The translations under genes were made by a program, and so were the position numbers. This document shows positions 33,580-48,406 of a stretch of DNA of 64,000 nt, in pieces. How positions within the stretch are numbered: position 1 is the stretch's first letter; the number at the start of each line of letters is the position of its first letter. The stretch spans positions 34,252 to 98,251 of the forward strand of contig JBFZAN010000053.1 of the NCBI GenBank assembly GCA_041309005.1, read 5' to 3'. The DNA is from Candidatus Omnitrophota bacterium. Its GTDB lineage: Bacteria; Omnitrophota; Gorgyraeia; Gygaellales; Profunditerraquicolaceae. The notes under the pieces are model-generated. The model saw only the letters and a program-made list of their open reading frames with translations, made no database searches and was not told the origin of the DNA.

Positions 33580-34728
33580 ATGGCAAATAAGAAACGCTTA
33601 CTTGCGCTTACGCGGGAACTGATCAGGATAGATTCCCAGAATCCGCCCGGGAACGAATCGCGGATAGCGGCCTTTGTCGGTTCTTATTTGAAAAAACTTG
33701 GGCTAAGGGTAAGGCTGTACGAGTTCGCGAAGAACCGTCCTAATGTCGTGGCGTATCTGGCAGGAAGGAATAAGGGCAGGTCCCTGCTTATCACGCCTCA
33801 TTTAGATACAGTGCCCGCCGGAAAAAGCTGGACGCGCGCTCCTTTCGCCGCGCAGGTACGCGGGGAAAAATTGTACGGCCTAGGCGCCACCGATTGTAAA
33901 GGTAATCTCGCGAGCGCGCTGGAGGCCCTGCGCAGTATTATCGAAGATGGCTTACGGCTGGAGTATACCCTGGTTTTTGCGGCTACCGCTGACGAAGAGA
34001 CAGGCTCCGATCTCGGCTTGATCCCGCTTTTGGACAAAGGGATCCTGACGCCTGATGCGGCGCTGGTCCTGGATTCCGATGATTTTGAGATTATCGTCGC
34101 CCAGAAAGGCCTTCTTCATGTGAAGGTGAAGGTCCGCGGCAAGAGGGCGCACGGAGCGTACCCTTGGCTCGGCGTCAACGCGATCGACGAAATGCTGGCG
34201 ATACTGCAGGCGTTAAAACGTCATGCTTTTGAATATGCGGGAAATAAATATCTTAAGCCTCCCACGGTCAATATAGGGACCATCAGGGGAGGGGACAAGG
34301 TGAATATAGTAGCAGACTGGTGTGAATGCGAATTGGATTTCAGGTTTACTCCCGGAATGTCGGCGAAAGCGATCTTGCGGGTGCTGGAACGCATTGTTCG
34401 TTCACGCGCCGGAAAATTCGAGATCGAGATCGAAGGAAGCCAGAAGCCGTATGTAATAAAAGAGGGACATTCCCTGGTAAAAGATTTGGTAGCCGCAATG
34501 CGCGCGGTCAACGTGCAGGGACGGGTACAGGGTTCGGAAGGCGCAACCACGATAACGTTTTTTCAGGATAAGCATATCCCCGCGGTTGCCACCGGCTTTG
34601 GCTGCGCGGGTTGCGCGCATATCGCGGATGAATATGTCAAGATCGACAGCCTTTACAAAGGGGCCCTTGTCCTGGAAACATTTTTAAAAAACTATACATT
34701 CGGTTCTTATAAAGAAAGAGGTGGGTAA
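33580..34728 (+). CDS. M20-family metallopeptidase (ArgE/DapE-type deacylase)
   Basis: ITPHLDTVP, GATDCKGNLA, ADEETGS motifs of M20 zinc peptidases. Confidence 0.75.
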   Translation: MANKKRLLALTRELIRIDSQNPPGNESRIAAFVGSYLKKLGLRVRLYEFAKNRPNVVAYLAGRNKGRSLLITPHLDTVPAGKSWTRAPFAAQVRGEKLYGLGATDCKGNLASALEALRSIIEDGLRLEYTLVFAATADEETGSDLGLIPLLDKGILTPDAALVLDSDDFEIIVAQKGLLHVKVKVRGKRAHGAYPWLGVNAIDEMLAILQALKRHAFEYAGNKYLKPPTVNIGTIRGGDKVNIVADWCECELDFRFTPGMSAKAILRVLERIVRSRAGKFEIEIEGSQKPYVIKEGHSLVKDLVAAMRAVNVQGRVQGSEGATTITFFQDKHIPAVATGFGCAGCAHIADEYVKIDSLYKGALVLETFLKNYTFGSYKERGG

Positions 34729-35693
34729 TGGAAGGTGTTGCGATCCATAAAAAACCGAGATTAAAAAATCCGTATTTGATCGTCGCCTGGCCGGGTATGG
34801 GAGAGGTGGCGTTCAAGGCAGCGACCTATTTGATAGATACGTTAAAAGCGCAGGAGTTCGCCGAAATGGCCGCACAGGACTTTTTTTATCTGACAGGCAG
34901 TAAAATAGAGGCCGGGGTAGTCAGCCTGCCACAGATGCCCTACAGCAAATTCTATTATTACAAAAATAAAGCGGGCAATAACGATCTGATCATATTTTTA
35001 AGCGATTCGCAGCCGGACCTGGCGAAGGCAGACGAGTATTGCAAGAGGATCATCCACGTGGCCAGGACGTTTAAGGTAAAGATGGTGATCAGCTTTGCCG
35101 CGATGCCGCAGCCCATAGACCATACCCAGCATTCCAATGTATGGTGCGCGGCCACGTCGCCGCAGCTGAATAACTCGCTAAGCAAACACAATGTACAGTT
35201 GCTTGCAGAGGGACAGGTAAGCGGCCTGAACGGCCTTTTTCTCGGGATGGCAAAGAAAGAAGGCTTCCAGGGTTTCTGCCTTTTGGGTGAGATCCCCCTG
35301 TACACCATACAGATAGAAAACCCCAAGGCTTCCCACGCGGTGCTGGAGACGCTGGGCAGGATAATCGATCTCCCGATAGATTTTTCAGGCCTCGCTGAGC
35401 AGGAGCATGGTATGGATGAGCAGATCAATAAACTGCTGGATTTCCTTAAGGTGGGGCCCACGCAAAACCCTATCAGTGAAGACGAGATAGAAAAGATCAA
35501 GAAGTCTTTGAGCCAGCTTACGAAGTTGCCTCTTTCCGTAAAAGAGAAAATCGAAAAGCTTTTTTCGGAAACCAAGACGGACATTTCGAAGGCCCGCCAG
35601 TTAAAAGACGAACTGGATAAATGGAATGTGTATCGGGAATATGAAGACAGGTTCCTGGATTTGTTCAAGAAGCAGAAGGATAAGAATAACTAA
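34728..35693 (+). CDS. PAC2-family protein
   Basis: YLIVAWPGMGEVAFKAATYLID...LSDSQPD...GLNGLFLGMAKKEG pattern of bacterial PAC2 (proteasome-assembly-chaperone-like) family; C-terminal acidic coiled coil. Confidence 0.5.
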   Translation: MEGVAIHKKPRLKNPYLIVAWPGMGEVAFKAATYLIDTLKAQEFAEMAAQDFFYLTGSKIEAGVVSLPQMPYSKFYYYKNKAGNNDLIIFLSDSQPDLAKADEYCKRIIHVARTFKVKMVISFAAMPQPIDHTQHSNVWCAATSPQLNNSLSKHNVQLLAEGQVSGLNGLFLGMAKKEGFQGFCLLGEIPLYTIQIENPKASHAVLETLGRIIDLPIDFSGLAEQEHGMDEQINKLLDFLKVGPTQNPISEDEIEKIKKSLSQLTKLPLSVKEKIEKLFSETKTDISKARQLKDELDKWNVYREYEDRFLDLFKKQKDKNN

Positions 35694-35721
35694 AAGCCCA
35701 CCCTTTTTTAAGAAAATATAC

Positions 35722-36348
35722 ATGGACGCCGCGCCGGTAAAGGCAATCATTTTTGATTTAGGCAATGTGCTCGTCAGTTTCGACCATTCCATAGCGGCGC
35801 GTAAGATCGCCCCCTTTACCGATAAGACCCTTCCCGAGATATACTCCCTCTTCTTTAACTCTAACATCACCCAGCTCTTTGAGGAAGGAAAGATCGCGCC
35901 CCTGGATTTTTTCGCAGAGGTCAAACACATGCTTGGCGCAAGGCTTGACTACGATGCCTTCCTGCCGATATGGAATGAGATCTTTTTCCTGACCGATGAG
36001 AACCGCAGGGTGTATGCGCTGGCTAAGCGCCTGAATCACCGGTACGCTACGGCGCTCCTGTCGAATATAAATATCCTGCATCTGGAGTATCTTAAAAGTA
36101 ATTTTTCCGTATTCGATGCGTTCGGTAACGTTTTTACTTCTTGTGAACTGGGATCCATCAAGCCGGACCCCTCGACCTATAATGAGGTGCTGCGGTCCCT
36201 GGGGGTAATGGCGAGTGAGGCCTTCTATGTCGACGACAGGCAGGAGCTTATCGACGCGGCGGCCGGCTTAGGGATACGGTCATTTGTGTTTATGGGCGCG
36301 CAGCAGCTGGAAAAGGATCTGTCGGATTGCGGCGTAATCGTCGAATAA
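35722..36348 (+). CDS. HAD-family hydrolase (subfamily IA)
   Basis: Motif I IIFDLGNVL, motif II LLSN, motif III/IV ...YVDDRQELI; start at ATG 35722 rather than the track's upstream ATG. Confidence 0.7.
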   Translation: MDAAPVKAIIFDLGNVLVSFDHSIAARKIAPFTDKTLPEIYSLFFNSNITQLFEEGKIAPLDFFAEVKHMLGARLDYDAFLPIWNEIFFLTDENRRVYALAKRLNHRYATALLSNINILHLEYLKSNFSVFDAFGNVFTSCELGSIKPDPSTYNEVLRSLGVMASEAFYVDDRQELIDAAAGLGIRSFVFMGAQQLEKDLSDCGVIVE

Positions 36349-36349
36349 A

Positions 36350-37084
36350 ATGAAAAGCAGCGTTTACCAGAGACGGTTTTACAGGCGATGGCAGGGCGCG
36401 CGCGATCTTTACAAGGCGCGCGTGGTAATACAGGAGACCGATCTCTACATACTTACGGACAGGCCTGTTGATCGGGATTTCGTCGGGAAGAGGCTGATGC
36501 GTTACCGCGGTCAGATAGAGCGCTATATCCAGAAGGACCGCCGTTTCCTCGCCAGTCTGAAGCCGATAACGCTCGATTCGGATGGTCCCGCAATCATACG
36601 GCAGATGGGTGAGGCCGCCAAAAAGGCCGGGGTAGGCCCCATGGCGGCGGTCGCAGGCGCTATCGCTGGATTTCTGGGCAGGGACCTTTTACGCAAGGGG
36701 TATACAGAGGTAATTATCGAGAACGGCGGCGATATATTTTTAAAGTCTTCAAAGACCCGCCTGGTAGGGATCTATGCGGGAGCTTCTCCGCTATCGCGCC
36801 GGCTCTCTCTGAAGATACGCCCTGAAGACACGCCGTTAGGCGTATGCGCCTCTTCGGGTACAGTGGGCCATTCTTTAAGTTTTGGCCGCGCCGACAGCGC
36901 GGTGGTCATTTCAAAAAACGCCTCCCTCGCGGACGCGGCAGCTACCGCAACCTGCAATCGCGTCGAAGCGAAAGAAGATATGCAAAAGGCGCTTGATTTC
37001 GCGCGCTCCGTAAAAGGGATTACCGGGGCCGTGGTCGTCATGGGGGAAGCGCTTGCCGCCTGGGGCGCCGTTGAATTGGCATAA
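36350..37084 (+). CDS. conserved hypothetical protein (UPF0280/ApbE-like?)
   Basis: GPMAAVAGAIAGFLGRDL...IIENGGDIFL...GVCASSGTVGHSLSFGRADSAVV. The family assignment is tentative. Confidence 0.4.
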   Translation: MKSSVYQRRFYRRWQGARDLYKARVVIQETDLYILTDRPVDRDFVGKRLMRYRGQIERYIQKDRRFLASLKPITLDSDGPAIIRQMGEAAKKAGVGPMAAVAGAIAGFLGRDLLRKGYTEVIIENGGDIFLKSSKTRLVGIYAGASPLSRRLSLKIRPEDTPLGVCASSGTVGHSLSFGRADSAVVISKNASLADAAATATCNRVEAKEDMQKALDFARSVKGITGAVVVMGEALAAWGAVELA

Positions 37085-37164: not shown

Positions 37165-37193
37165 TTGACAAAACATACAGATGTGATAAAAAA
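37165..37193 (+). promoter_or_regulatory. putative sigma70-like promoter (-35 TTGACA; extended -10 TGaTAAAAA)
   Basis: TTGACA at 37165-37170; TG at 37184-37185 and A/T-rich hexamer 37187-37192, 16-nt spacer; ~100 nt upstream of the ATP-grasp gene. Confidence 0.35.
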
Positions 37194-37269
37194 TAAATAC
37201 AATACGTAAAGACTTAAGAAACTTTTGAGGAGGTAGGTCAGCTAAATTGGAAAAACTAGGTACTATATA

Positions 37270-37298
37270 AAGGCTCTGGGTCAAAAGAGCCTTTTTTT
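37270..37298 (+). terminator. intrinsic-terminator-like hairpin (8-bp stem AAGGCTCT/AGAGCCTT, loop GGGTCAAA, then T7) abutting the start codon at 37299
   Basis: Perfect inverted repeat followed directly by TTTTTTT; located between the putative promoter and the first Ddl-like gene. Confidence 0.5.
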
Positions 37299-38294
37299 AT
37301 GCTTATGGCGAAAACAGTCGGATTAACATACGATTTAAAGACGGATTACGAGTTTAAGGATAGCGATCCTCCTGACGCGAACGCGGAGTTTGATCATCCG
37401 GATACCGTTTCTCTTATTGCTTCAGCCATCGCATCAAGGGGCTTTAAGGTAAAAAGGATCGGTAATGTCTCAAGCCTCCTGGAGAATATCGCGGACCTCA
37501 AGGTAGACATCGTATTCAATATATCCGAAGGCGTCTCCGGCAGGAACCGCGAATCCCAGGTGCCTTTATTGCTGGAAATGGCGGGTATCCCTTTTGTGGG
37601 AGCGGATTCCCTGAGTCTCGGGATCTCTCTGGATAAGCTTATGGCAAAAAAGATCTTTATCGCTGAAAAAATCCCCACCCCCAGATTTATCGAAGTCAAG
37701 GATTCCGCCGCGCTTGACTCAGACCACCTTAAATTCCCCCTGATCGTAAAGCCGCGTTTTGAAGGTTCCTCCAAAGGCTTAAGCGAATCCTCGCGCGTGG
37801 AGAATGCCGAAGAGCTCAAGAAGCAGGTCGAATATATCATCTCTACCTATAAGCAGCCCGCGCTGATAGAAGAATTTATACGGGGGGAAGAGTTCACCGT
37901 CGCGCTTATCGGCAACGAGCCTCCTGAAGTGCTGCCGATAGTCCAGATAAAGATAGACGGAAGACTTAAGCTTAACGATAAGTTCTACACCTTCGGCCAC
38001 ATCAAGGACGATAAATTGGAATATGTGTGTCCCGCGAGGGTCTCTCAGGAGTTAAAGCTTGAAATCGGCGAGCTTGCCCGGCGGACTTTCGAAGCGATCG
38101 AATGCCGCGATTTCGGCAGGGTCGATTTCAGGGTCGATGAAAAAGGCAAGCCCTACGTGCTTGAGATAAACCCCCTGCCTTCCTTGTCGTCGGCAGACGT
38201 ATTTATGGTAGTGGCACATCAGCTAGGGCTTTCGTATGAAGATATCATCGGCAGGATATTGCAGGCTGCCCTTACCAGGTATAATTTGAATTGA
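37299..38294 (+). CDS. D-alanine--D-alanine ligase-family ATP-grasp enzyme (paralogue 1)
   Basis: Ddl-like N-domain (KTVGLTYDL...), central GRNRESQVPLLLEMAGIPFVGADSLSLGISLDKLMAKKIF, ATP-grasp C-domain (EEFIRGEEFTVALI, VDFRVDEKGKPYVLEINPLP). Confidence 0.7.
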   Translation: MLMAKTVGLTYDLKTDYEFKDSDPPDANAEFDHPDTVSLIASAIASRGFKVKRIGNVSSLLENIADLKVDIVFNISEGVSGRNRESQVPLLLEMAGIPFVGADSLSLGISLDKLMAKKIFIAEKIPTPRFIEVKDSAALDSDHLKFPLIVKPRFEGSSKGLSESSRVENAEELKKQVEYIISTYKQPALIEEFIRGEEFTVALIGNEPPEVLPIVQIKIDGRLKLNDKFYTFGHIKDDKLEYVCPARVSQELKLEIGELARRTFEAIECRDFGRVDFRVDEKGKPYVLEINPLPSLSSADVFMVVAHQLGLSYEDIIGRILQAALTRYNLN

Positions 38295-38302
38295 GCGCGA
38301 AT

Positions 38303-39310
38303 ATGAAAATCGCTTTGACGTGCAATCTTAAAAAAGAGGATGATTCAAAACCCCCGGATTATTTTTCAGAATTTGATTCCCAGGAGACCGTAAACGCCAT
38401 CACCTCGGCGCTGGAGACCAAGGGCCACAACGTCGATTTTATCGACGTGGAACAGCCTAACCTCTTTACCTTTTTCAAAAAAAATCGAGTCGATATGGTA
38501 TTCAATATCGCGGAAGGCAAAACCGGCAGGTACCGTGAGTCGGAAGTGCCCGCCATACTCGATTATTTGAATATCCCCTACACCGGCTCCAATACCCTTT
38601 CCTTAGCCGTCGCGTTAAATAAAGCGCTTACCAAAAAAATACTGAAAGCAGAAGGTATTCCCACTCCGGCCTTTCAGATCTTCAGCAAGGGCAACGAAAA
38701 GCTCGATGCGGCCCTGCGTTTTCCTCTTATCGTAAAGCCAAACTATGAAGGCTCCGCAAAGGGCATCAATAAAACCAATGTAGTGCATAGTCCGCGAGAG
38801 CTTTTTGACAAGGTCAGGGAGACCATTGATTTTTACAAGCAGGGGGTACTGGTCGAAGAATTTATCGAAGGCAGGGAATTGACGGTAGGGATATTGGAGA
38901 ATGGCAAAGCACAGGTGCTTCCCATCCTGGAGATAGATTTCTCCACCTGCTCCGGGAGCGGCGAGTATTTTTATTCCTGGCGCATGAAAGAATACCAGGG
39001 CAACGCCGAAATGGGACTGACCCCGACGTTTCACTGCCCTGCCAAGCTGGATGCGGAAACAGAGCGCAAGGTCAAAGAGGCGGCGTTAAAGACGCATAGC
39101 GCGATAGGCTGTCTGGATATTTCCCGCACCGATATACGCTTAAGCAGGGACAATATCCCGTATGTCCTTGAGATAAACCCTTTGCCGGGGCTGGACCCCA
39201 AAGAATCCAATTTTCCGATCATGGCGTACGCGGCGGGCATGACCTACGAAGATCTTATTGAGGGCATATTGTTAAATGCCTATAAAAGGAGGAGTCTGGA
39301 AGATGAATAA
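38303..39310 (+). CDS. D-alanine--D-alanine ligase-family ATP-grasp enzyme (paralogue 2)
   Basis: Same architecture as the upstream gene (MKIALTCNL..., SEVPAILDYLNIPYTGSNTLSLAVALNKALTKKIL, EEFIEGRELTVGIL, ISRTDIRLSRDNIPYVLEINPLPGL); ATG 38303 preferred over the in-frame TTG 38291. Confidence 0.7.
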   Translation: MKIALTCNLKKEDDSKPPDYFSEFDSQETVNAITSALETKGHNVDFIDVEQPNLFTFFKKNRVDMVFNIAEGKTGRYRESEVPAILDYLNIPYTGSNTLSLAVALNKALTKKILKAEGIPTPAFQIFSKGNEKLDAALRFPLIVKPNYEGSAKGINKTNVVHSPRELFDKVRETIDFYKQGVLVEEFIEGRELTVGILENGKAQVLPILEIDFSTCSGSGEYFYSWRMKEYQGNAEMGLTPTFHCPAKLDAETERKVKEAALKTHSAIGCLDISRTDIRLSRDNIPYVLEINPLPGLDPKESNFPIMAYAAGMTYEDLIEGILLNAYKRRSLEDE

Positions 39311-40487
39311 TGCGACAGCAACGGATACCCAGAAGTTGCTCGTAGAAAATACAGCCCCTGCGCGCTCAGGCAGGCGGGCGCCGGATTATCAGCAGATAAG
39401 CCTGTACAAAGACGTCAACCCCCTTGAATGGGAGGATTGGCACTGGCAGATGAAAAACCGCATCACTAAACTCGAACAGATCAGCCAGGTAGTTACGCTC
39501 ACCCCCGAAGAAGAAGAGGGCATAAAGAACGCCAAGGGGAGGATGGCGATGGCGATTACCCCCTATTGGGCGACGATGATTGACCCCGAAGATACAAAAT
39601 GCCCCATACGGCGCCAGGCGATTCCCACCAAATACGAATTTGAAATCGGCCCGTATGAGATGACCGACCCTTGCGCCGAAGACAGGGATTCTCCCGCCGC
39701 GCATTTGGTCCATCGTTATCCCGACAGGGTATTGCTGCTTGCGACCGAGCAGTGCGCGATGTATTGCAGGCACTGCACCAGGAGAAGGCTGGTCGGCAAA
39801 GAAGAGACTACGGAAAAAATACTGAATAAGCTCGATGCGGGGATAGAATATGTCAGGAGCAACAAAAAGGTGCGCGACGTGCTTATTTCCGGAGGAGACC
39901 CCCTTCTTCTTGAAGAAGAAGCCCTGGAGGAGCTGCTTAAGAAGATCCGCGCCATCCCCCATGTGGAGCTCTTGAGGATAGGTACGAGGGCCCCGGTGAC
40001 GTTACCGCAACGGATCACCCCGTCCCTGATCGCGATGCTTAAAGAATACGCGCCGATCTGGATAAGTATACATTTCAATCATCCGAAAGAGATCACCAGG
40101 CGGTGTAAGAGCGCCTGCGAAATGCTCGCCGATGCGGGATTTCCTTTGGGGAGCCAGACAGTGCTCCTGCAGGGGATCAACGACCGGCCTTACGTCATGC
40201 GTAAACTTATGCATGAACTCTTAAAAATCAGGGTCCGCCCCTATTATATCTACCAGTGTGACCCCGTAAAAGGGACCAGCCACTTCCGCACCCAGGTTTC
40301 AGTGGGTATAAACATCATGGAAAGGCTCAGGGGCCACACTTCAGGGTATGCGGTCCCGACATATGTGATTGATGGCCCGGGCGGAGGAGGAAAGATCCCG
40401 GTTGGGCCGAACTATATACTTTCCCTGGCAAAGGGAAAATATGTGCTGCGCAATTATAAAGGCAAGATCTACACCTACCTGGAGTAG
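39303..40487 (+). CDS. KamA-family radical SAM protein (lysine 2,3-aminomutase-like)
   Basis: CAMYCRHCTRRR (CxxxCxxC radical-SAM cluster), VLISGGDPLLL, PLP-binding Lys region ...YYIYQCDPVKGTSHFR typical of KamA/EpmB; AAGGAGG RBS before ATG 39303. Confidence 0.8.
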   Translation: MNNATATDTQKLLVENTAPARSGRRAPDYQQISLYKDVNPLEWEDWHWQMKNRITKLEQISQVVTLTPEEEEGIKNAKGRMAMAITPYWATMIDPEDTKCPIRRQAIPTKYEFEIGPYEMTDPCAEDRDSPAAHLVHRYPDRVLLLATEQCAMYCRHCTRRRLVGKEETTEKILNKLDAGIEYVRSNKKVRDVLISGGDPLLLEEEALEELLKKIRAIPHVELLRIGTRAPVTLPQRITPSLIAMLKEYAPIWISIHFNHPKEITRRCKSACEMLADAGFPLGSQTVLLQGINDRPYVMRKLMHELLKIRVRPYYIYQCDPVKGTSHFRTQVSVGINIMERLRGHTSGYAVPTYVIDGPGGGGKIPVGPNYILSLAKGKYVLRNYKGKIYTYLE

Positions 40488-40493
40488 ACGCGC

Positions 40494-41798
40494 GTGCATA
40501 AAAAAGGCCGCATAACGTTTTTTCTGGCGCTCGTCCTGCTTCTGCCGTTTCCCGCCTTCGCGCAACTGAACCCGGAAATCAGACAATATATTGTCAGCCG
40601 CTCGCTGGACATGCTGGAGTCCCAGCATAACCCTCTTGCCCAGGGCGCTTACAATACGTACTATCCCCCGCAGGGTCCAGACGAAGAACCTTACCAGCCT
40701 TCCAGGCCGCCGCGTGACCGGGACGAAGTGGCCGAAGAATACATCATCGAGCAGGAAAATAAGTCTTCCGATACGCTTTATAATTTTATTTTCGGTAACG
40801 GACTGGGGAAACTGTCGCTGGGATTCGAATTAGGCAGCATCAAGGGGGATACCAAATACCGCATCAGCTTCGACAATCCTTACGATATTGGCGGTCACGG
40901 AGAAAGCGAGCTTAAGTGGCCTATCGACACCACGCTGATCGGCCTTTCCGCCGCGCTCCACTACAAGCCGCAGGAAGACAATATGCTTACGCATGACAGG
41001 TTCCGCCTCAGCTTCAAATGGCTTACGAAGGCAGGCAAGAGCAGGGGCAATATGAAAGATTCCGACTGGATCGAGAACGACGTCGGATACATAGATTATA
41101 ACGATGATGGCGTCTTGAACGGCTCCAGCGCCTGGGCGACGAACCATGACGGCCTCGATATATATTCGGAATCGCCGGTAAAGCTGGACGAAGCAAACAT
41201 CTTCGATATCAACTACGTCTATAACCTCTGGGTAAGGGATACGTGGGCGCTGGGGCCCGTACTCGGCTATCACCACCAGAGTTTTAAGTTTTCAGCCTAC
41301 AGCGTGAACCAGGTAGGCTACGGCCCTTACGGCCCCGCCGGGCTTTTTGACCAGAGCTTTCAGGACACCCGCGGCCTTAAATGGGGAGAATATCAGGCGA
41401 GTTATCACGTGCCGTATCTGGGGCTGAACAGCGAGTTCAGCCTGAACGAAAAGCTCTCCTTTCTTATTAACCTGGGGTATTCTCCCTGGGTGAGGATCAA
41501 GGACAGGGATTCGCATCTGTACCCGACTATGGACGAAGCCTTAGGTTATAATGTCGATATGCTTTCTCCCGGCCGGAGCCACGGCAAGGCATTCCTCTTC
41601 GGCAGCGAAGGCAGCTGGAAGCTGGCCCAAGGGTGGTTACTGAATGTGGGCGCTAATTATATCTCCATCAACGCGAAAGGCGACCTCGTCCAGCAGCACT
41701 ATGCTGCCGGCGTCCTGACCGGGGAAAGCGAACCCGTTGATGAAAAAGTAAAATCCAGGTATTGGCTTATCAACGCAGCGCTGCAATACACATTCTAG
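40494..41798 (+). CDS. secreted protein, probable outer-membrane beta-barrel protein
   Basis: Signal peptide FFLALVLLLPFPAFAQ, Gly/Tyr/aromatic-rich alternating strands, C-terminal ...ALQYTF; 7 nt after KamA. Confidence 0.45.
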   Translation: MHKKGRITFFLALVLLLPFPAFAQLNPEIRQYIVSRSLDMLESQHNPLAQGAYNTYYPPQGPDEEPYQPSRPPRDRDEVAEEYIIEQENKSSDTLYNFIFGNGLGKLSLGFELGSIKGDTKYRISFDNPYDIGGHGESELKWPIDTTLIGLSAALHYKPQEDNMLTHDRFRLSFKWLTKAGKSRGNMKDSDWIENDVGYIDYNDDGVLNGSSAWATNHDGLDIYSESPVKLDEANIFDINYVYNLWVRDTWALGPVLGYHHQSFKFSAYSVNQVGYGPYGPAGLFDQSFQDTRGLKWGEYQASYHVPYLGLNSEFSLNEKLSFLINLGYSPWVRIKDRDSHLYPTMDEALGYNVDMLSPGRSHGKAFLFGSEGSWKLAQGWLLNVGANYISINAKGDLVQQHYAAGVLTGESEPVDEKVKSRYWLINAALQYTF

Positions 41799-41828: not shown

Positions 41829-41857
41829 TTGACCAGCCAAACTTTGCGGTATATAAT
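41829..41857 (+). promoter_or_regulatory. sigma70-like promoter (-35 TTGACC, 17-nt spacer, -10 TATAAT)
   Basis: TTGACC 41829-41834, TATAAT 41852-41857; 61 nt upstream of the EF-G-like gene with GGAG RBS. Confidence 0.55.
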
Positions 41858-41918: not shown

Positions 41919-43874
41919 ATGGATGCGAACAATAAAAGGAACATTATTTTATTAGGCCACGCCCAGTCGGGAAAGACTTCCCTTGCGGAAAGCATGTTGT
42001 TTGTCTGCAAGGCCGTCGCAAGAAAGGGCTCGGTTACCGACGGAACAACGGCGAGCGATTATAGCTGGGACGAAATAGAAAGAAAAAGCTCCATAAATTC
42101 CGGGCTCCTTAACTGCGAATACAAGGATACGAAGGTCCAGATCATCGACGCGCCGGGATACGCGGATTTCTTCGGCGAGGTTATTTCCGGCTTACGAGCG
42201 GTAGACGCAGCAGTAATCGTGGTGGACGTAAGCGCCGGGATTGAGGTCGGGACAGAACGCTCCTGGCAGATAACGGAAGATTCTAACCTGCCCTGCATTA
42301 TTTTTATCAATAAAACGGACAAGGATGGCGCGGACGTCAATAAAGTATTGGCGGATATCCAGAGCGTATTTTCCAAAAGGGCGGTGATGATCGGCTCCTT
42401 AGAAGACCCTTCGCTCATAGAAGCGATCGCCGAAAGCGACGACAAGCTCCTGGAAAAATACCTGGAAGGCACACAGCTGTCTGCTGATGAGCTGAAAAAT
42501 GGTTTACATCAGGCAGTGGACAGGCGAAAGGTATTCCCCGTGGTGTGCGGCTCTTCCCTTACCGATAAAGGTATACCGGAATTATTGGAAGAGATCGTAA
42601 CCTATATGCCTTCACCGCTGGAGCGGGAAAAAATCGAGGTGACAAATCCCCTCAAGCCGGATGAGCGCAAAGAGATAGCCTTTCGCCAGGACGGCCCGTT
42701 TGCGGCATTTGTGTTCAAGACGATTTCAGACCCGTATGTCGGCCAGCTTACGCTATTACGCGTGTTCTCCGGCGCGCTGGCGGCGAACACGGGGTTTTTT
42801 AACGTCACCAAAAAAACCAGAGAGAGGATAGGCTCTATTTTTATGCTGCAGGGTAAGGAGCAGCGCTCGGTGGACGCCGCAGCATGCGGGGACATCGTGG
42901 CGATCGCGAAATTAAAAGAAACTGCCACTTCGGATTCGCTCGCGGATGAAAAAGAGCAGGTCCTGTTTGAGCCCATCGTGTTCCCGGAGCCGGCCATATC
43001 CGCATCGGTAAAGCCTAAATCGCGAGCCGACGAAGAGAAGATCTCCAGCGTCCTGGCGAAACTCGCCGATGAAGACCCCACCTTTAAAGCGCACCATGAC
43101 CCTCAGACAAAAGAGCTGATTATTTCGGGGCTCGGAGACTTGCATCTTACGGTGATGGTCGGCAGGATGAAAAAAAGGTTTAATGTCGATGTGGAATTGG
43201 GGACGCCAAAAGTTTCTTACAAGGAGACCATAACCAAAAGCGCCAAGGTCCAGGGTAAATTCAAGCGTCAGTCAGGCGGCCGCGGCCAGTACGGGGACGT
43301 CTGGATCCAGATCGAGCCTATGGAAAAAGGCGCAGGGTTTGAATTTGTGGACAAGATTTTCGGCGGCGCTATCCCCAAGAACTATATCCCTTCGGTAGAA
43401 AAGGGCGTTATCCAGGCAATGGCAGAAGGCGCGGTCGCAGGATATCCTATTGTGGACGTGCGGGTGATCCTCACGGACGGTTCGTATCACGAAGTCGATT
43501 CTTCCGATATGGCGTTCCAGAGAGCAGGTTCCATCGCGCTGCGAAAAGCGGTCACGGAAGCCGGCCCTGCATTGCTTGAGCCGATCATGGATGTCGAGGT
43601 GGCGATCCCTGAAGAATTCCTTGGCGCGATTTCGGGCGATATCAATTCCAGGCGCGGCCGAATTATGGGCATGGATGTAAAAGGGAAGTCGCAGGTGGTA
43701 AAAGCAACTGTCCCGCTGGCCGAAATGTTTACCTATGCCAACGACTTGCGCTCCCTTACCGGCGGCAGGGGCTCCTACGCAATGAAGTTTTCCCGCTACG
43801 AAGAGGCGCCCCACAAAATATCGTCCGTAATCATAAACCACTACCAGGCAACTAAGAAACACGAAGAAGAATAG
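41919..43874 (+). CDS. elongation factor G-family translational GTPase (EF-G paralogue)
   Basis: G1 GHAQSGKTSL, G3 DAPGYADF, G4 NKTDK, then EF-G domains II–V (GDLHLTVMVGRMKKRFNVDVELGTPKVSYKETI...; C-terminal ...RGRIMGMD...). At 651 aa it is shorter than canonical EF-G, and the G-motifs are divergent (canonical AHIDAGKTT / NKMD). Confidence 0.7.
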   Translation: MDANNKRNIILLGHAQSGKTSLAESMLFVCKAVARKGSVTDGTTASDYSWDEIERKSSINSGLLNCEYKDTKVQIIDAPGYADFFGEVISGLRAVDAAVIVVDVSAGIEVGTERSWQITEDSNLPCIIFINKTDKDGADVNKVLADIQSVFSKRAVMIGSLEDPSLIEAIAESDDKLLEKYLEGTQLSADELKNGLHQAVDRRKVFPVVCGSSLTDKGIPELLEEIVTYMPSPLEREKIEVTNPLKPDERKEIAFRQDGPFAAFVFKTISDPYVGQLTLLRVFSGALAANTGFFNVTKKTRERIGSIFMLQGKEQRSVDAAACGDIVAIAKLKETATSDSLADEKEQVLFEPIVFPEPAISASVKPKSRADEEKISSVLAKLADEDPTFKAHHDPQTKELIISGLGDLHLTVMVGRMKKRFNVDVELGTPKVSYKETITKSAKVQGKFKRQSGGRGQYGDVWIQIEPMEKGAGFEFVDKIFGGAIPKNYIPSVEKGVIQAMAEGAVAGYPIVDVRVILTDGSYHEVDSSDMAFQRAGSIALRKAVTEAGPALLEPIMDVEVAIPEEFLGAISGDINSRRGRIMGMDVKGKSQVVKATVPLAEMFTYANDLRSLTGGRGSYAMKFSRYEEAPHKISSVIINHYQATKKHEEE

Positions 43875-43887
43875 AAAGAGGTTTTAG

Positions 43888-44589
43888 ATGAAGATAAGCG
43901 TTTTTGCGATACCCGAATTACCCCCCGGCAAATATAATGTAAAAGACAGCCGGCTCGATGAAGTTGACAAGATCACAAAAGCCAAAAAGAAGACATACGT
44001 GCAGGTCGAGCTTGCGGGAGAAGAGGCCATGCTCGAAGCGGATGCGGTACTGACTTTATCCGGCTCTCTCCCCGACCTGGTATTAAAAGACCTGGAATTC
44101 GTTGAAACGCGCTTAAGCCGCGCTGAGCAGGAGCAGGAAAAGGCGATACTCGGTAAATTGAAGACGATCCTGGAAAAAGAAGAGCTTATTTTTAAGGCCG
44201 GCTTAAGCCAGGAAGAATTCCGCATGCTGGCCGGGTATTCACTTATTACCGCGAAACCCGTGGTGGCGGTCCAGAAACAGGAGCTGGAGGATATGCCCGC
44301 GATCCTGGCGAAGGCGCTCAGGGAAAGCGGCTATCTCAGTTTTTTTACTACCGGCGAAAAAGAAACACGCGCCTGGTTGATCAGGAAGGGCGCCACTGCC
44401 TGGGAGGCGGCGGGAGCGATACACTCCGATATCCAGCGGGGCTTTATCCGCGCGGAGATCATCAGCTTGAGCGACTTTATCCAGGCGGGCGGCGAGAACC
44501 AGGCGAAACAGGCGGGAAAATTGCGCCTTGAGCAAAAAGACTACGTGATGCAGGACGCCGACCTCGCTAACTTCCGTTTCAATAAATAA
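43888..44589 (+). CDS. YchF/Ola1-like protein lacking a functional P-loop G-domain (DUF933/TGS-like C-terminal region conserved)
   Basis: The C-terminus ETRAWLIRKGATAWEAAGAIHSDIQRGFIRAEIISLSDFIQAGGENQAKQAGKLRLEQKDYVMQDADLANFRFNK aligns to the YchF C-terminal domain. The N-terminus MKISVFAIPELPPGKYN occupies the place of the Walker A (GLPNVGKST) but lacks it. Only 233 aa against ~363 for YchF. Confidence 0.55.
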   Translation: MKISVFAIPELPPGKYNVKDSRLDEVDKITKAKKKTYVQVELAGEEAMLEADAVLTLSGSLPDLVLKDLEFVETRLSRAEQEQEKAILGKLKTILEKEELIFKAGLSQEEFRMLAGYSLITAKPVVAVQKQELEDMPAILAKALRESGYLSFFTTGEKETRAWLIRKGATAWEAAGAIHSDIQRGFIRAEIISLSDFIQAGGENQAKQAGKLRLEQKDYVMQDADLANFRFNK

Positions 44590-47752: not shown

Positions 47753-48406
47753 ATGGGCATTTTCCGGGCAGCGGAAGTGGCTGGCAAATTGAGGATTTCT
47801 AAGCAAACGCTTTTTCGTTACGAAAAAAAAGGCATTTTTCCTAAACCGAGAAGGAACAGGATCAACCGTTGGCGCGAATATAACGAGGAAGAAATACAAA
47901 AAATGAAACAGATCATGGGCAGGGGTTTTACACTGCTTGAATTGATCATAGTAGTGGTGATAATGGGGATCCTGGCTGCCTTGGCCATCCCGCGCTTTGA
48001 AAGTTTCTATACCGTAAAATTGAAGGGAGCGGTGAACAATGTGGTTTCCGACATCCGCTACGTGCAGCAACTGGCGGCCTCCAGCCATGATACCTACAAG
48101 ATGACTTTTTACGTAACTCCCGCCAACAGGTACGAAGTCCAGAAATCAGACAATAGCTACGCGAAGAACCCTTTTGGCCACGGGGATTTTATAATCAATT
48201 TCACAAATGATCCCCAGTATAAAGGGATCGGTATCGATAGCGCGAATATTAACGGAATGAATATCCTGAGCTTCGATTGGAACGGCACGCCCCGGGATGC
48301 AAACGGGAACACCTTGACAGCCGAGGGGCAGGTAAATCTTTCTTATCAAAATGATTCTTTTTCCGTGAGGGTTACGCCTAATACCGGCTGGGTGAGGGTG
48401 CAGTGA
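47753..48406 (+). CDS. type IV pilin/pseudopilin with in-frame N-terminal MerR-like HTH extension (HTH–prepilin fusion ORF)
   Basis: Residues ~8-50 AEVAGKLRISKQTLFRYEKKGIFPKPRRNRINRWREYNEEEI resemble the MerR/excisionase-type HTH. These are followed in the same frame, with no stop, by a textbook class-III signal MKQIMGRG|FTLLELIIVVVIMGILAALAIP (Gly-1, Phe+1, Glu+5) and a pilin-like beta-rich C-terminus. The reading frame was verified codon by codon. Confidence 0.65.
   Translation: MGIFRAAEVAGKLRISKQTLFRYEKKGIFPKPRRNRINRWREYNEEEIQKMKQIMGRGFTLLELIIVVVIMGILAALAIPRFESFYTVKLKGAVNNVVSDIRYVQQLAASSHDTYKMTFYVTPANRYEVQKSDNSYAKNPFGHGDFIINFTNDPQYKGIGIDSANINGMNILSFDWNGTPRDANGNTLTAEGQVNLSYQNDSFSVRVTPNTGWVRVQ

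Follow-up and report, generated by a model that had tools for sequence, protein, structure and literature searches.

The window analysed here, a 64,000-nucleotide (nt) stretch of DNA from a Candidatus Omnitrophota genome, contains an operon of four tightly packed, co-directional genes on the plus strand (region 37165–41798; Table 1). These genes encode two ATP-grasp ligases related to D-alanine–D-alanine ligase (Ddl), named here D1 and D2, a short-form lysine 2,3-aminomutase of the KamA family (a radical S-adenosylmethionine and pyridoxal 5′-phosphate (PLP) enzyme) and an omptin-like exported barrel protein. All four genes called in a first-pass annotation of this DNA are present. The start/stop overlaps that it described hold for one junction, at which KamA and the last 8 nt of D2 overlap and AAGGAGGAG precedes the KamA ATG, whereas with the revised starts the D1 stop and the D2 ATG are separated by 8 nt and do not overlap. 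The likely starts of D1, D2 and KamA were chosen by homologue lengths and Shine-Dalgarno positions. The KamA stop lies 6 nt from the start of the barrel gene, and the whole operon is tightly packed behind one promoter.

D1 and D2 share 40% identity, and both match the Pfam family Dala_Dala_lig_C, as expected of the diverged pair of Ddl-family paralogues described in the first-pass annotation. Neither scores as a genuine Ddl. With the best-matching Ddl model, NF002378, they reach 182.6 and 204 bits, respectively, against a cut-off of 243, and with TIGR01205 they reach 164 and 171 bits against 245.65. Every Ddl cut-off is missed, and none of the curated NCBIfam models carries a name for these ligases. 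The closest solved relatives of both proteins are small-substrate Ddl enzymes throughout, and weak Pfam matches to TTL and RimK are also obtained. Two protein searches returned 5,475 sequences at E ≤ 0.001 and 7,883 at E ≤ 1e-30 (more than 13,000 scored in all), and the public names among the matches listed are ‘D-alanine-D-alanine ligase' or ‘ATP-grasp domain-containing protein'. The open reading frames (ORFs) of the window that were scanned with Pfam, which cover part of the 64 kb, include no mur or dcw genes, and the operon does not present itself as an only Ddl set beside murein genes.

The active sites of the ligases were compared in 74 D1-type and 48 D2-type sequences, together with both ligase types of other phyla (types A and B, see below), using what we take to be the sequence of E. 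coli DdlB as the reference; its numbering agreed at the 16 positions checked out of 18, and S151 and G276 follow from it. The ATP, Mg and catalytic residues K97, K144, E180, E187, R255, D257, E270 and N272 are kept in D1, D2, type A and type B, and E15, which binds the donor amine in Ddl, is retained in type A and in both Omnitrophota ligases. The residues that bind D-alanine in Ddl (H63, E68, Y216 and L282) are replaced: position 63 is variable across the ligases, E68 gives way to an aromatic residue in type B and to arginine in the other three groups, Y216 becomes tryptophan in types A and B, glutamate in D2 and isoleucine or valine in D1, and L282 is variably valine or asparagine. The acceptor site of D1 has diverged further (S281 to D, G276 to S), and D2 retains K215, G276 and S281 of type A. 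The N-terminal GGxSxE region of Ddl is replaced by two invariant family motifs, AEFD and FNIAEGxxGRxRExxxP. Because the catalytic residues are intact, the D-alanine-site residues are replaced and the Ddl scores fall below cut-off, D1 and D2 are predicted to be active amide ligases of a specificity different from that of Ddl. Additional acidic residues in the ligases would fit a cationic substrate.

The third gene product aligns with the C. subterminale lysine 2,3-aminomutase 2A5H over residues 41–403 (9e-144). It marginally exceeds the cut-off of the AblA model TIGR03820 (526.9 bits against 525.4, over model positions 5–360 of 417) and falls well below those of the glutamate 2,3-aminomutase model (474 against 650) and of the EpmB model TIGR03821 (240.1 against 369.3). 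The KamA family membership proposed earlier is thereby upheld, and a grouping with EpmB is not seen. The cassette KamAs are all short forms, in which the C-terminal stretch of the AblA model (about 57 positions) has no counterpart. The CAMYCRHC cluster is present in the window KamA, and C125, C129, C132, R134, D293, D330 and K337 are all kept; these residues are conserved in 47–49 of 49 Omnitrophota-like cassette KamAs and in 66–67 of 67 from other phyla. In the 2A5H structure the cysteines hold the cluster, K337 is the PLP lysine, and R134, D293 and D330 bind lysine. The window enzyme is therefore predicted to be a lysine 2,3-aminomutase of the KamA/AblA type that makes beta-lysine. At D293 there is a single exception among the cassette aminomutases: a ligase–KamA fusion protein (P0209; locus L007, 7171–9258) has glutamine at the equivalent position, a change that may point to another substrate in its lineage.

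The decisive evidence for a link between the ligases and KamA comes from other phyla, because in Omnitrophota the whole neighbourhood is conserved and inherited synteny could explain the gene order. An exhaustive family search of 50%-identity representatives, at E ≤ 1e-30, yielded 1,170 proteins, among them numerous fused double ATP-grasp proteins and two KamA fusions. A genome scan (one genome per species, with the 12-sequence family alignment A2) returned 80 loci, whose neighbours were identified by ORF calling and phmmer. These loci come from Ignavibacteriota (including Ignavibacterium album metagenome-assembled genomes), Gemmatimonadota, Desulfuromonadales/Geobacteraceae, Kryptonia, Thermodesulfobacteriota and Bathyarchaeia, the last represented by five loci (L008–L010, L015 and L023). 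Nearly all of the 80 carry two family ligases, and KamA lies beside the ligases in 68, with 4 of the 12 misses being contigs that end early. In 65 of the 80 there is also a 157-residue GNAT acetyltransferase, mostly between the second ligase and KamA. It scores 20.2 bits on the AblB model TIGR03827 against a cut-off of 205.1, and its best NCBIfam match is RimI-like (52 bits, below cut-off). No neighbour other than the ligases, KamA and GNAT is conserved across phyla in these loci. In its usual form the wider system thus has a GNAT and ligases of two distinct types (A and B), which the first-pass annotation had missed, along with the derived nature of the Omnitrophota form and the leader ahead of the operon (both below).

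Gene fusions tie the same components together. Ligase–KamA (P0209) and KamA–ligase (P0214) proteins both occur; one locus (L006) encodes a KamA–ligase fusion followed by a ligase–GNAT fusion, and another (L169) encodes KamA, a fused A+B ligase and then GNAT. The full A–B–GNAT–KamA cassette is found in the cultured Desulfuromonas versatilis, at about 3,147,668–3,151,300 of AP024355.1 with DESUT3_27940 as ligase A, and homologues of ligase A, annotated as hypothetical, ATP-grasp or ‘Ddl family' proteins, are found in Geoalkalibacter and other Desulfuromonas isolates. The ATP-grasp ligases and KamA thus form one functional unit. The functional link between them that had been read from the window is borne out by co-conservation across phyla and by gene fusion, and a lack of co-conservation of the three genes, which would have told against it, is not what distant phyla display.

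Several arrangements at individual loci were noted alongside the cassette. Two loci (L005, 8001–11432; L168, 2505–5310) encode a fused B-like/A-like double ATP-grasp protein followed at once by a Peptidase_S58 gene; the two resemble a related pair of synthetase and hydrolase that would act on some other substrate. The DmpA/BapA beta-aminopeptidases belong to S58, and the pairing fits peptides carrying beta-amino acids. Directly upstream of the cassette in Desulfuromonas versatilis (L170, 5891–7636; AP024355.1) and at L053 and L062 lies a gene for a 581-residue histone-deacetylase-like amidohydrolase with a faint GNAT match. This protein may deacetylate the cassette product; it was rejected as a member of the system, being confined to these three Desulfuromonadales loci. 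An Elusimicrobiota locus (L004, 8001–14095) has a gene for a 1,086-residue leucine-rich-repeat protein and a small helix-turn-helix gene between a single family ligase and KamA.

The Omnitrophota version of the cassette was followed in 80 Omnitrophota-like metagenome loci and three long contigs (L001–L003). The order D1–D2–KamA is kept in the long contigs and is dominant among the metagenome loci. On type-specific hidden Markov models (HMMs), A versus B, D1 scores 312 against 272 bits and D2 338 against 282 bits, and in a neighbour-joining tree both lie nearer type A. No cassette-type GNAT is found in the window or in the long contigs, nor among the ORFs of L088–L166. The Omnitrophota form is a derived variant, in which GNAT has been dropped and two type-A-like ligases are present. 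In a deeper Omnitrophota-like branch (52–60% identity) a single ligase is followed directly by KamA, which implies that the minimal unit is one type-A-like ligase with KamA. Among relatives, D1, D2 and KamA are 72–74% identical to the window proteins, as is an EF-G paralogue encoded downstream (72%), whereas the neighbours M20, PAC2, HAD, AbpE and YchF-C reach 53–64%. D1–D2–KamA is under strong purifying selection, and selection as strong as that on EF-G suggests a core rather than an accessory function.

The operon is preceded by a conserved 5′ leader that is a candidate attenuator. The order of its elements in relatives (a promoter-like element, an AGGAGG box, an AAATTG(G/A)AAAAA box, a GC-rich hairpin and a U-run) is that of L001 and L003 and is repeated across the Omnitrophota-like metagenome loci. 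The box motif occurs once in the window, at this position, and at L003 the upstream gene differs and the leader still accompanies D1. Of 59 relatives, 57 have a hairpin with a U-run ahead of D1, against 0–2 of 19–52 for each of nine other gene classes; measured from the start codon, the U-run begins at a median distance of 16 nt and ends 7–20 nt upstream. Stem sequences vary among relatives and pairing is kept (GGGCTC/GAGCCC, GAGACAC/GTGTCTC and GGGATAG/CTATCCC). Hairpins were counted sequence by sequence and not from an alignment consensus; RNAalifold gave no consensus pairs on 27 leaders aligned with MAFFT, which had set the hairpin arms out of register.

There is no space for a promoter between the terminator and D1, and the operon must therefore be transcribed by read-through. 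Its expression is probably set by the leader. An Rfam search of the window, the leader and seven loci, at gathering and E-value thresholds, returned tRNAs and chance-level matches only and no known riboswitch, and no conserved antiterminator is evident by eye in the leaders. A possible mini-ORF, M-(E/K)-K, begins at a conserved TTG or GTG and in some loci runs through the terminator to an ATGA overlap with the D1 start. Such a mini-ORF would allow attenuation that senses lysine codons; what makes this less likely is a GTG-TAA variant and the 14-nt spacing between Shine-Dalgarno sequence and start.

Table 1. Features of the operon, its leader and adjoining genes in window coordinates.
Feature	Coordinates	Strand	Evidence and remarks
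M20 deacylase (ArgE/DapE type), PAC2, HAD phosphatase and AbpE_bact (PF27030) array	33580–37084		Upstream of operon; conserved throughout Omnitrophota relatives
Promoter-like TTGACA-18-AAAAAT, extended TGTGATAAAAAAT -10 region	37165–37194	+	Same layout in L001, L003 and most Omnitrophota-like leaders
Conserved 5′ leader, candidate attenuator	37195–37304	+	Box and hairpin conservation in relatives
Leader AGGAGG box	37228–37233	+	Sequence
Leader AAATTGGAAAAA box	37244–37255	+	AAATTG(G/A)AAAAA in relatives, about 14 nt after AGGAGG
Intrinsic terminator hairpin AAAGGCTCT/AGAGCCTTT	37269–37294	+	T run follows, ending at start codon
D1, ATP-grasp ligase	37305–38294	+	Pfam Dala_Dala_lig_C, 1.9e-39; alternative start 37299
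D2, ATP-grasp ligase	38303–39310	+	Pfam Dala_Dala_lig_C, 7.4e-38; alternative TTG start 38291
KamA, short-form lysine 2,3-aminomutase (radical SAM/PLP)	39303–40487	+	Alternative start 39276
Omptin-like exported barrel	40494–41798	+	Signal-peptide-like N-terminus; Pfam Omptin, 1.5e-16
EF-G paralogue	41919–43874		Own promoter 41829–41857, near-consensus TTGACC-17-TATAAT; downstream of KamA operon in most Omnitrophota relatives

The last gene of the operon had been taken as a possible means of exporting the product or attaching it to the cell surface, a role that its distribution does not support. The protein matches Pfam Omptin at 60.8 bits against a gathering threshold of 22.6 (profile positions 4–201 of 283) and reaches 31.9 bits on the NCBIfam omptin model against a cut-off of 415; sequence search found no solved omptin or other solved homologue. 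The gene is absent from L001 and L002, is replaced by an unrelated 284-residue ORF in L003, and is present in 1 of the 80 Omnitrophota-like relatives and missing from the other 79. It is co-transcribed here but occupies a variable slot outside the conserved system, and was ruled out as a member on that ground.

The remaining neighbours were also considered and set aside. M20, PAC2, HAD, AbpE_bact, EF-G, YchF-C and PurH are none of them linked to the cassette in other phyla. The upstream genes are excluded because the leader promoter and terminator intervene, and EF-G because it has its own promoter downstream of the operon. A literature search for ‘AbpE' returned only unrelated acronyms. The EF-G and YchF-like genes are cassette neighbours in Omnitrophota only. 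EF-G models align with the EF-G paralogue in two separate stretches, and about 46 residues of its G domain are missing (residues 165–647 correspond to model positions 211–690). The YchF-like gene (43888–44589), which adjoins it in relatives, encodes a 233-residue protein with only the C-terminal YchF domain (DUF933; model positions 266–367 of 368), and its GTPase part appears to be missing. Further along the window, a type IV pilus cluster opens with a protein (47753–48406) that combines a MerR-type helix-turn-helix with a prepilin N-terminal methylation motif, an unusual pairing; it is followed by two pilin-like ORFs, a PilM–PilN fusion, a secretin and a T2SSE ATPase.

Taken together, these data are best read as the Omnitrophota version of a widespread, undescribed cassette for a small beta-lysine-containing peptide or amide, a reading to which we give a probability of roughly 60%. 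In the proposed pathway, KamA would convert L-lysine to beta-lysine, the likely ligase substrate. The type-A ligase would then join beta-lysine, through an ATP-derived acyl-phosphate, to another small amino acid, which may itself be beta-lysine, and the second ligase would add a further amide bond. In most other phyla, the 157-residue GNAT would N-acetylate an amine of the compound. Our best guess at the product is accordingly a small peptide or amide that contains beta-lysine.

Some observations weigh against this interpretation. KamA is not nearby in 8 of the 76 loci on full contigs, nor within 8 kb of the S58-linked fused ligases at L005, which implies that the ligase family is not strictly tied to beta-lysine. 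The 80 loci of other phyla contain no conserved transporter, hydrolase or regulator that would indicate the fate of the product. The ligase substrate is assigned from gene context only, and the grouping of both D1 and D2 with type A depends on the neighbour-joining tree and on HMM differences of 40–55 bits. The literature covered was open-access full text, in which no description of the cassette was found, and an earlier computational mention is possible.

The most direct alternatives keep beta-lysine but change what is made of it. The ligases might attach beta-lysine, or a beta-lysine tail, to a macromolecule, be it a protein (for instance a translation factor) or a polymer of the envelope, by a route like that of RimK/TTL or an EF-P-like route independent of EpmA. 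In Omnitrophota the trio lies directly upstream of the EF-G paralogue and the YchF-like gene and is conserved like EF-G, the ligases give the weak TTL and RimK matches, and the best, sub-cut-off match of the GNAT is RimI-like (52 bits). This neighbourhood is nonetheless limited to Omnitrophota and missing in some of them (order D1–KamA–PurH), EF-G is under its own promoter, and no candidate target gene is conserved in the 80 loci of other phyla. The nearest solved relatives of the ligases all act on small substrates, KamA is no EpmB-type enzyme (240 bits against 369), and the cassette occurs in Bathyarchaeia; archaea use hypusinated aIF5A. Modification of a macromolecule is thus considered unlikely. 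A beta-lysine polymer for storage or as a polycation, similar to cyanophycin or to the beta-lysine chains of streptothricin, would give the two ligases separate tasks, either forming two kinds of bond or initiating and elongating the chain, which agrees with their different acceptor-site residues. The fused di-ATP-grasp relatives paired with an S58 peptidase resemble a synthetase/hydrolase system, and the sufficiency of one ligase with KamA in some lineages fits a homo-oligomer. Yet the KamA-linked cassette has no conserved hydrolase partner, the ligases lack the primer-binding or additional domain of cyanophycin synthetase, and the N-acetyltransferase of most cassettes better fits a capped small molecule. 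A polymer seems, if anything, slightly harder to credit than the attachment to a macromolecule.

The two other alternatives leave either the ligases or KamA without a part in the pathway. The genes could represent the AblAB-type pathway to the osmolyte N-epsilon-acetyl-beta-lysine, with the ligases as passengers, given that KamA passes the AblA cut-off, that GNAT adjoins KamA in most other phyla and that Na+/H+ exchangers lie near the cassette at L006. But Omnitrophota have no linked GNAT, the cassette GNAT is short (157 residues) and reaches 20 bits against the 205-bit AblB cut-off, and the ligases, some of them fused to KamA, are the most constant partners of KamA. Nor are the source sites (groundwater, sediment, soil and hot spring) especially saline, and this pathway is judged distinctly improbable. 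The proposal that D1 and D2 are the D-Ala–D-Ala (or D-Ala–D-X) ligases of murein synthesis, with KamA adjacent by coincidental synteny, has in its favour that Ddl or Van ligases head the matches in Pfam, NCBIfam and PDB alike and that the public annotation is D-alanine–D-alanine ligase. It can hardly be reconciled with scores of 182.6 and 204 bits against the 243-bit cut-off of the Ddl subfamily, with the loss of H63, E68, Y216 and L282 and the replaced N-terminal motifs, with the absence of mur and dcw genes nearby, with the occurrence of the family in Bathyarchaeia or with the fusion of the ligases to KamA and GNAT, and is the least credible of the readings weighed here.

The cassette for a beta-lysine peptide or amide can be viewed as a variant of two known kinds of system, beta-lysine pathways and ATP-grasp peptide ligases. 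It shares with the AblA/AblB osmolyte pathway of methanogens and some bacteria an aminomutase of the KamA/AblA type beside a dedicated downstream enzyme and, in most phyla, a GNAT; it differs in having two Ddl-like ligases as constant partners, in a GNAT that is half the size of AblB, fails the AblB model and is absent in Omnitrophota, and in a KamA without some 57 C-terminal positions of the AblA model. As in EpmA/EpmB, a KamA-family enzyme would feed beta-lysine to a dedicated ligase, which here is an ATP-grasp enzyme rather than a LysRS paralogue, and KamA stays below the EpmB cut-off (240 bits against 369). With Ddl and VanA the ligases share the fold, the ATP, Mg and catalytic residues and probably the joining of two small amino acids through an acyl-phosphate; the substrate residues, N-terminal motifs, sub-cut-off scores, absence of a murein context, presence in archaea and fusions to KamA or GNAT set them apart. 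Ngg is a bifunctional GNAT and ATP-grasp enzyme of the pathway to the osmolyte N-acetylglutaminylglutamine amide, and carnosine synthase is an ATP-grasp enzyme that ligates beta-alanine, a precedent for the use of beta-amino acids. Both resemble the proposed system in making a small cytoplasmic peptide with an ATP-grasp amide ligase, and Ngg also in N-acetylation; they belong to other ATP-grasp subfamilies and have no aminomutase, and the likeness is drawn here at the superfamily level only. A KamA-like radical SAM gene, pboF, adjoins an ATP-grasp ligase gene, pboG, in the Pbo cluster of Pseudomonas syringae (PMC8473136). PboG differs in being of the L-amino-acid-ligase type, within a 16-gene secondary-metabolite island of narrow distribution (PMC8473136). 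In the open-access full text searched for aminomutase, ATP-grasp, beta-lysine, D-alanine ligase and Omnitrophota, this cluster was the only loose parallel.

A fuller picture is offered more tentatively, as somewhat less than an even chance: the cassette would make a new beta-lysine peptide or oligomer, a core metabolite in Omnitrophota that is widespread in anaerobes and Bathyarchaeia, by means of a new class of ligases accepting a beta,epsilon-diamino acid and, in Omnitrophota, under the control of a new lysine-responsive leader (the M-(E/K)-K mini-ORF or a riboswitch). To our knowledge, few roles of beta-lysine have been described, namely the osmolyte N-epsilon-acetyl-beta-lysine, the modification of EF-P, lysine fermentation and some antibiotics. 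The spread of the cassette from Omnitrophota to Bathyarchaeia and its EF-G-like conservation would imply a widespread metabolite that has so far not been sought. Recognition of the family would also correct its systematic mis-annotation as D-alanine–D-alanine ligase and define a new specificity class within an enzyme family that is a drug target. As the cassette is present in cultured bacteria, its product should be directly identifiable.

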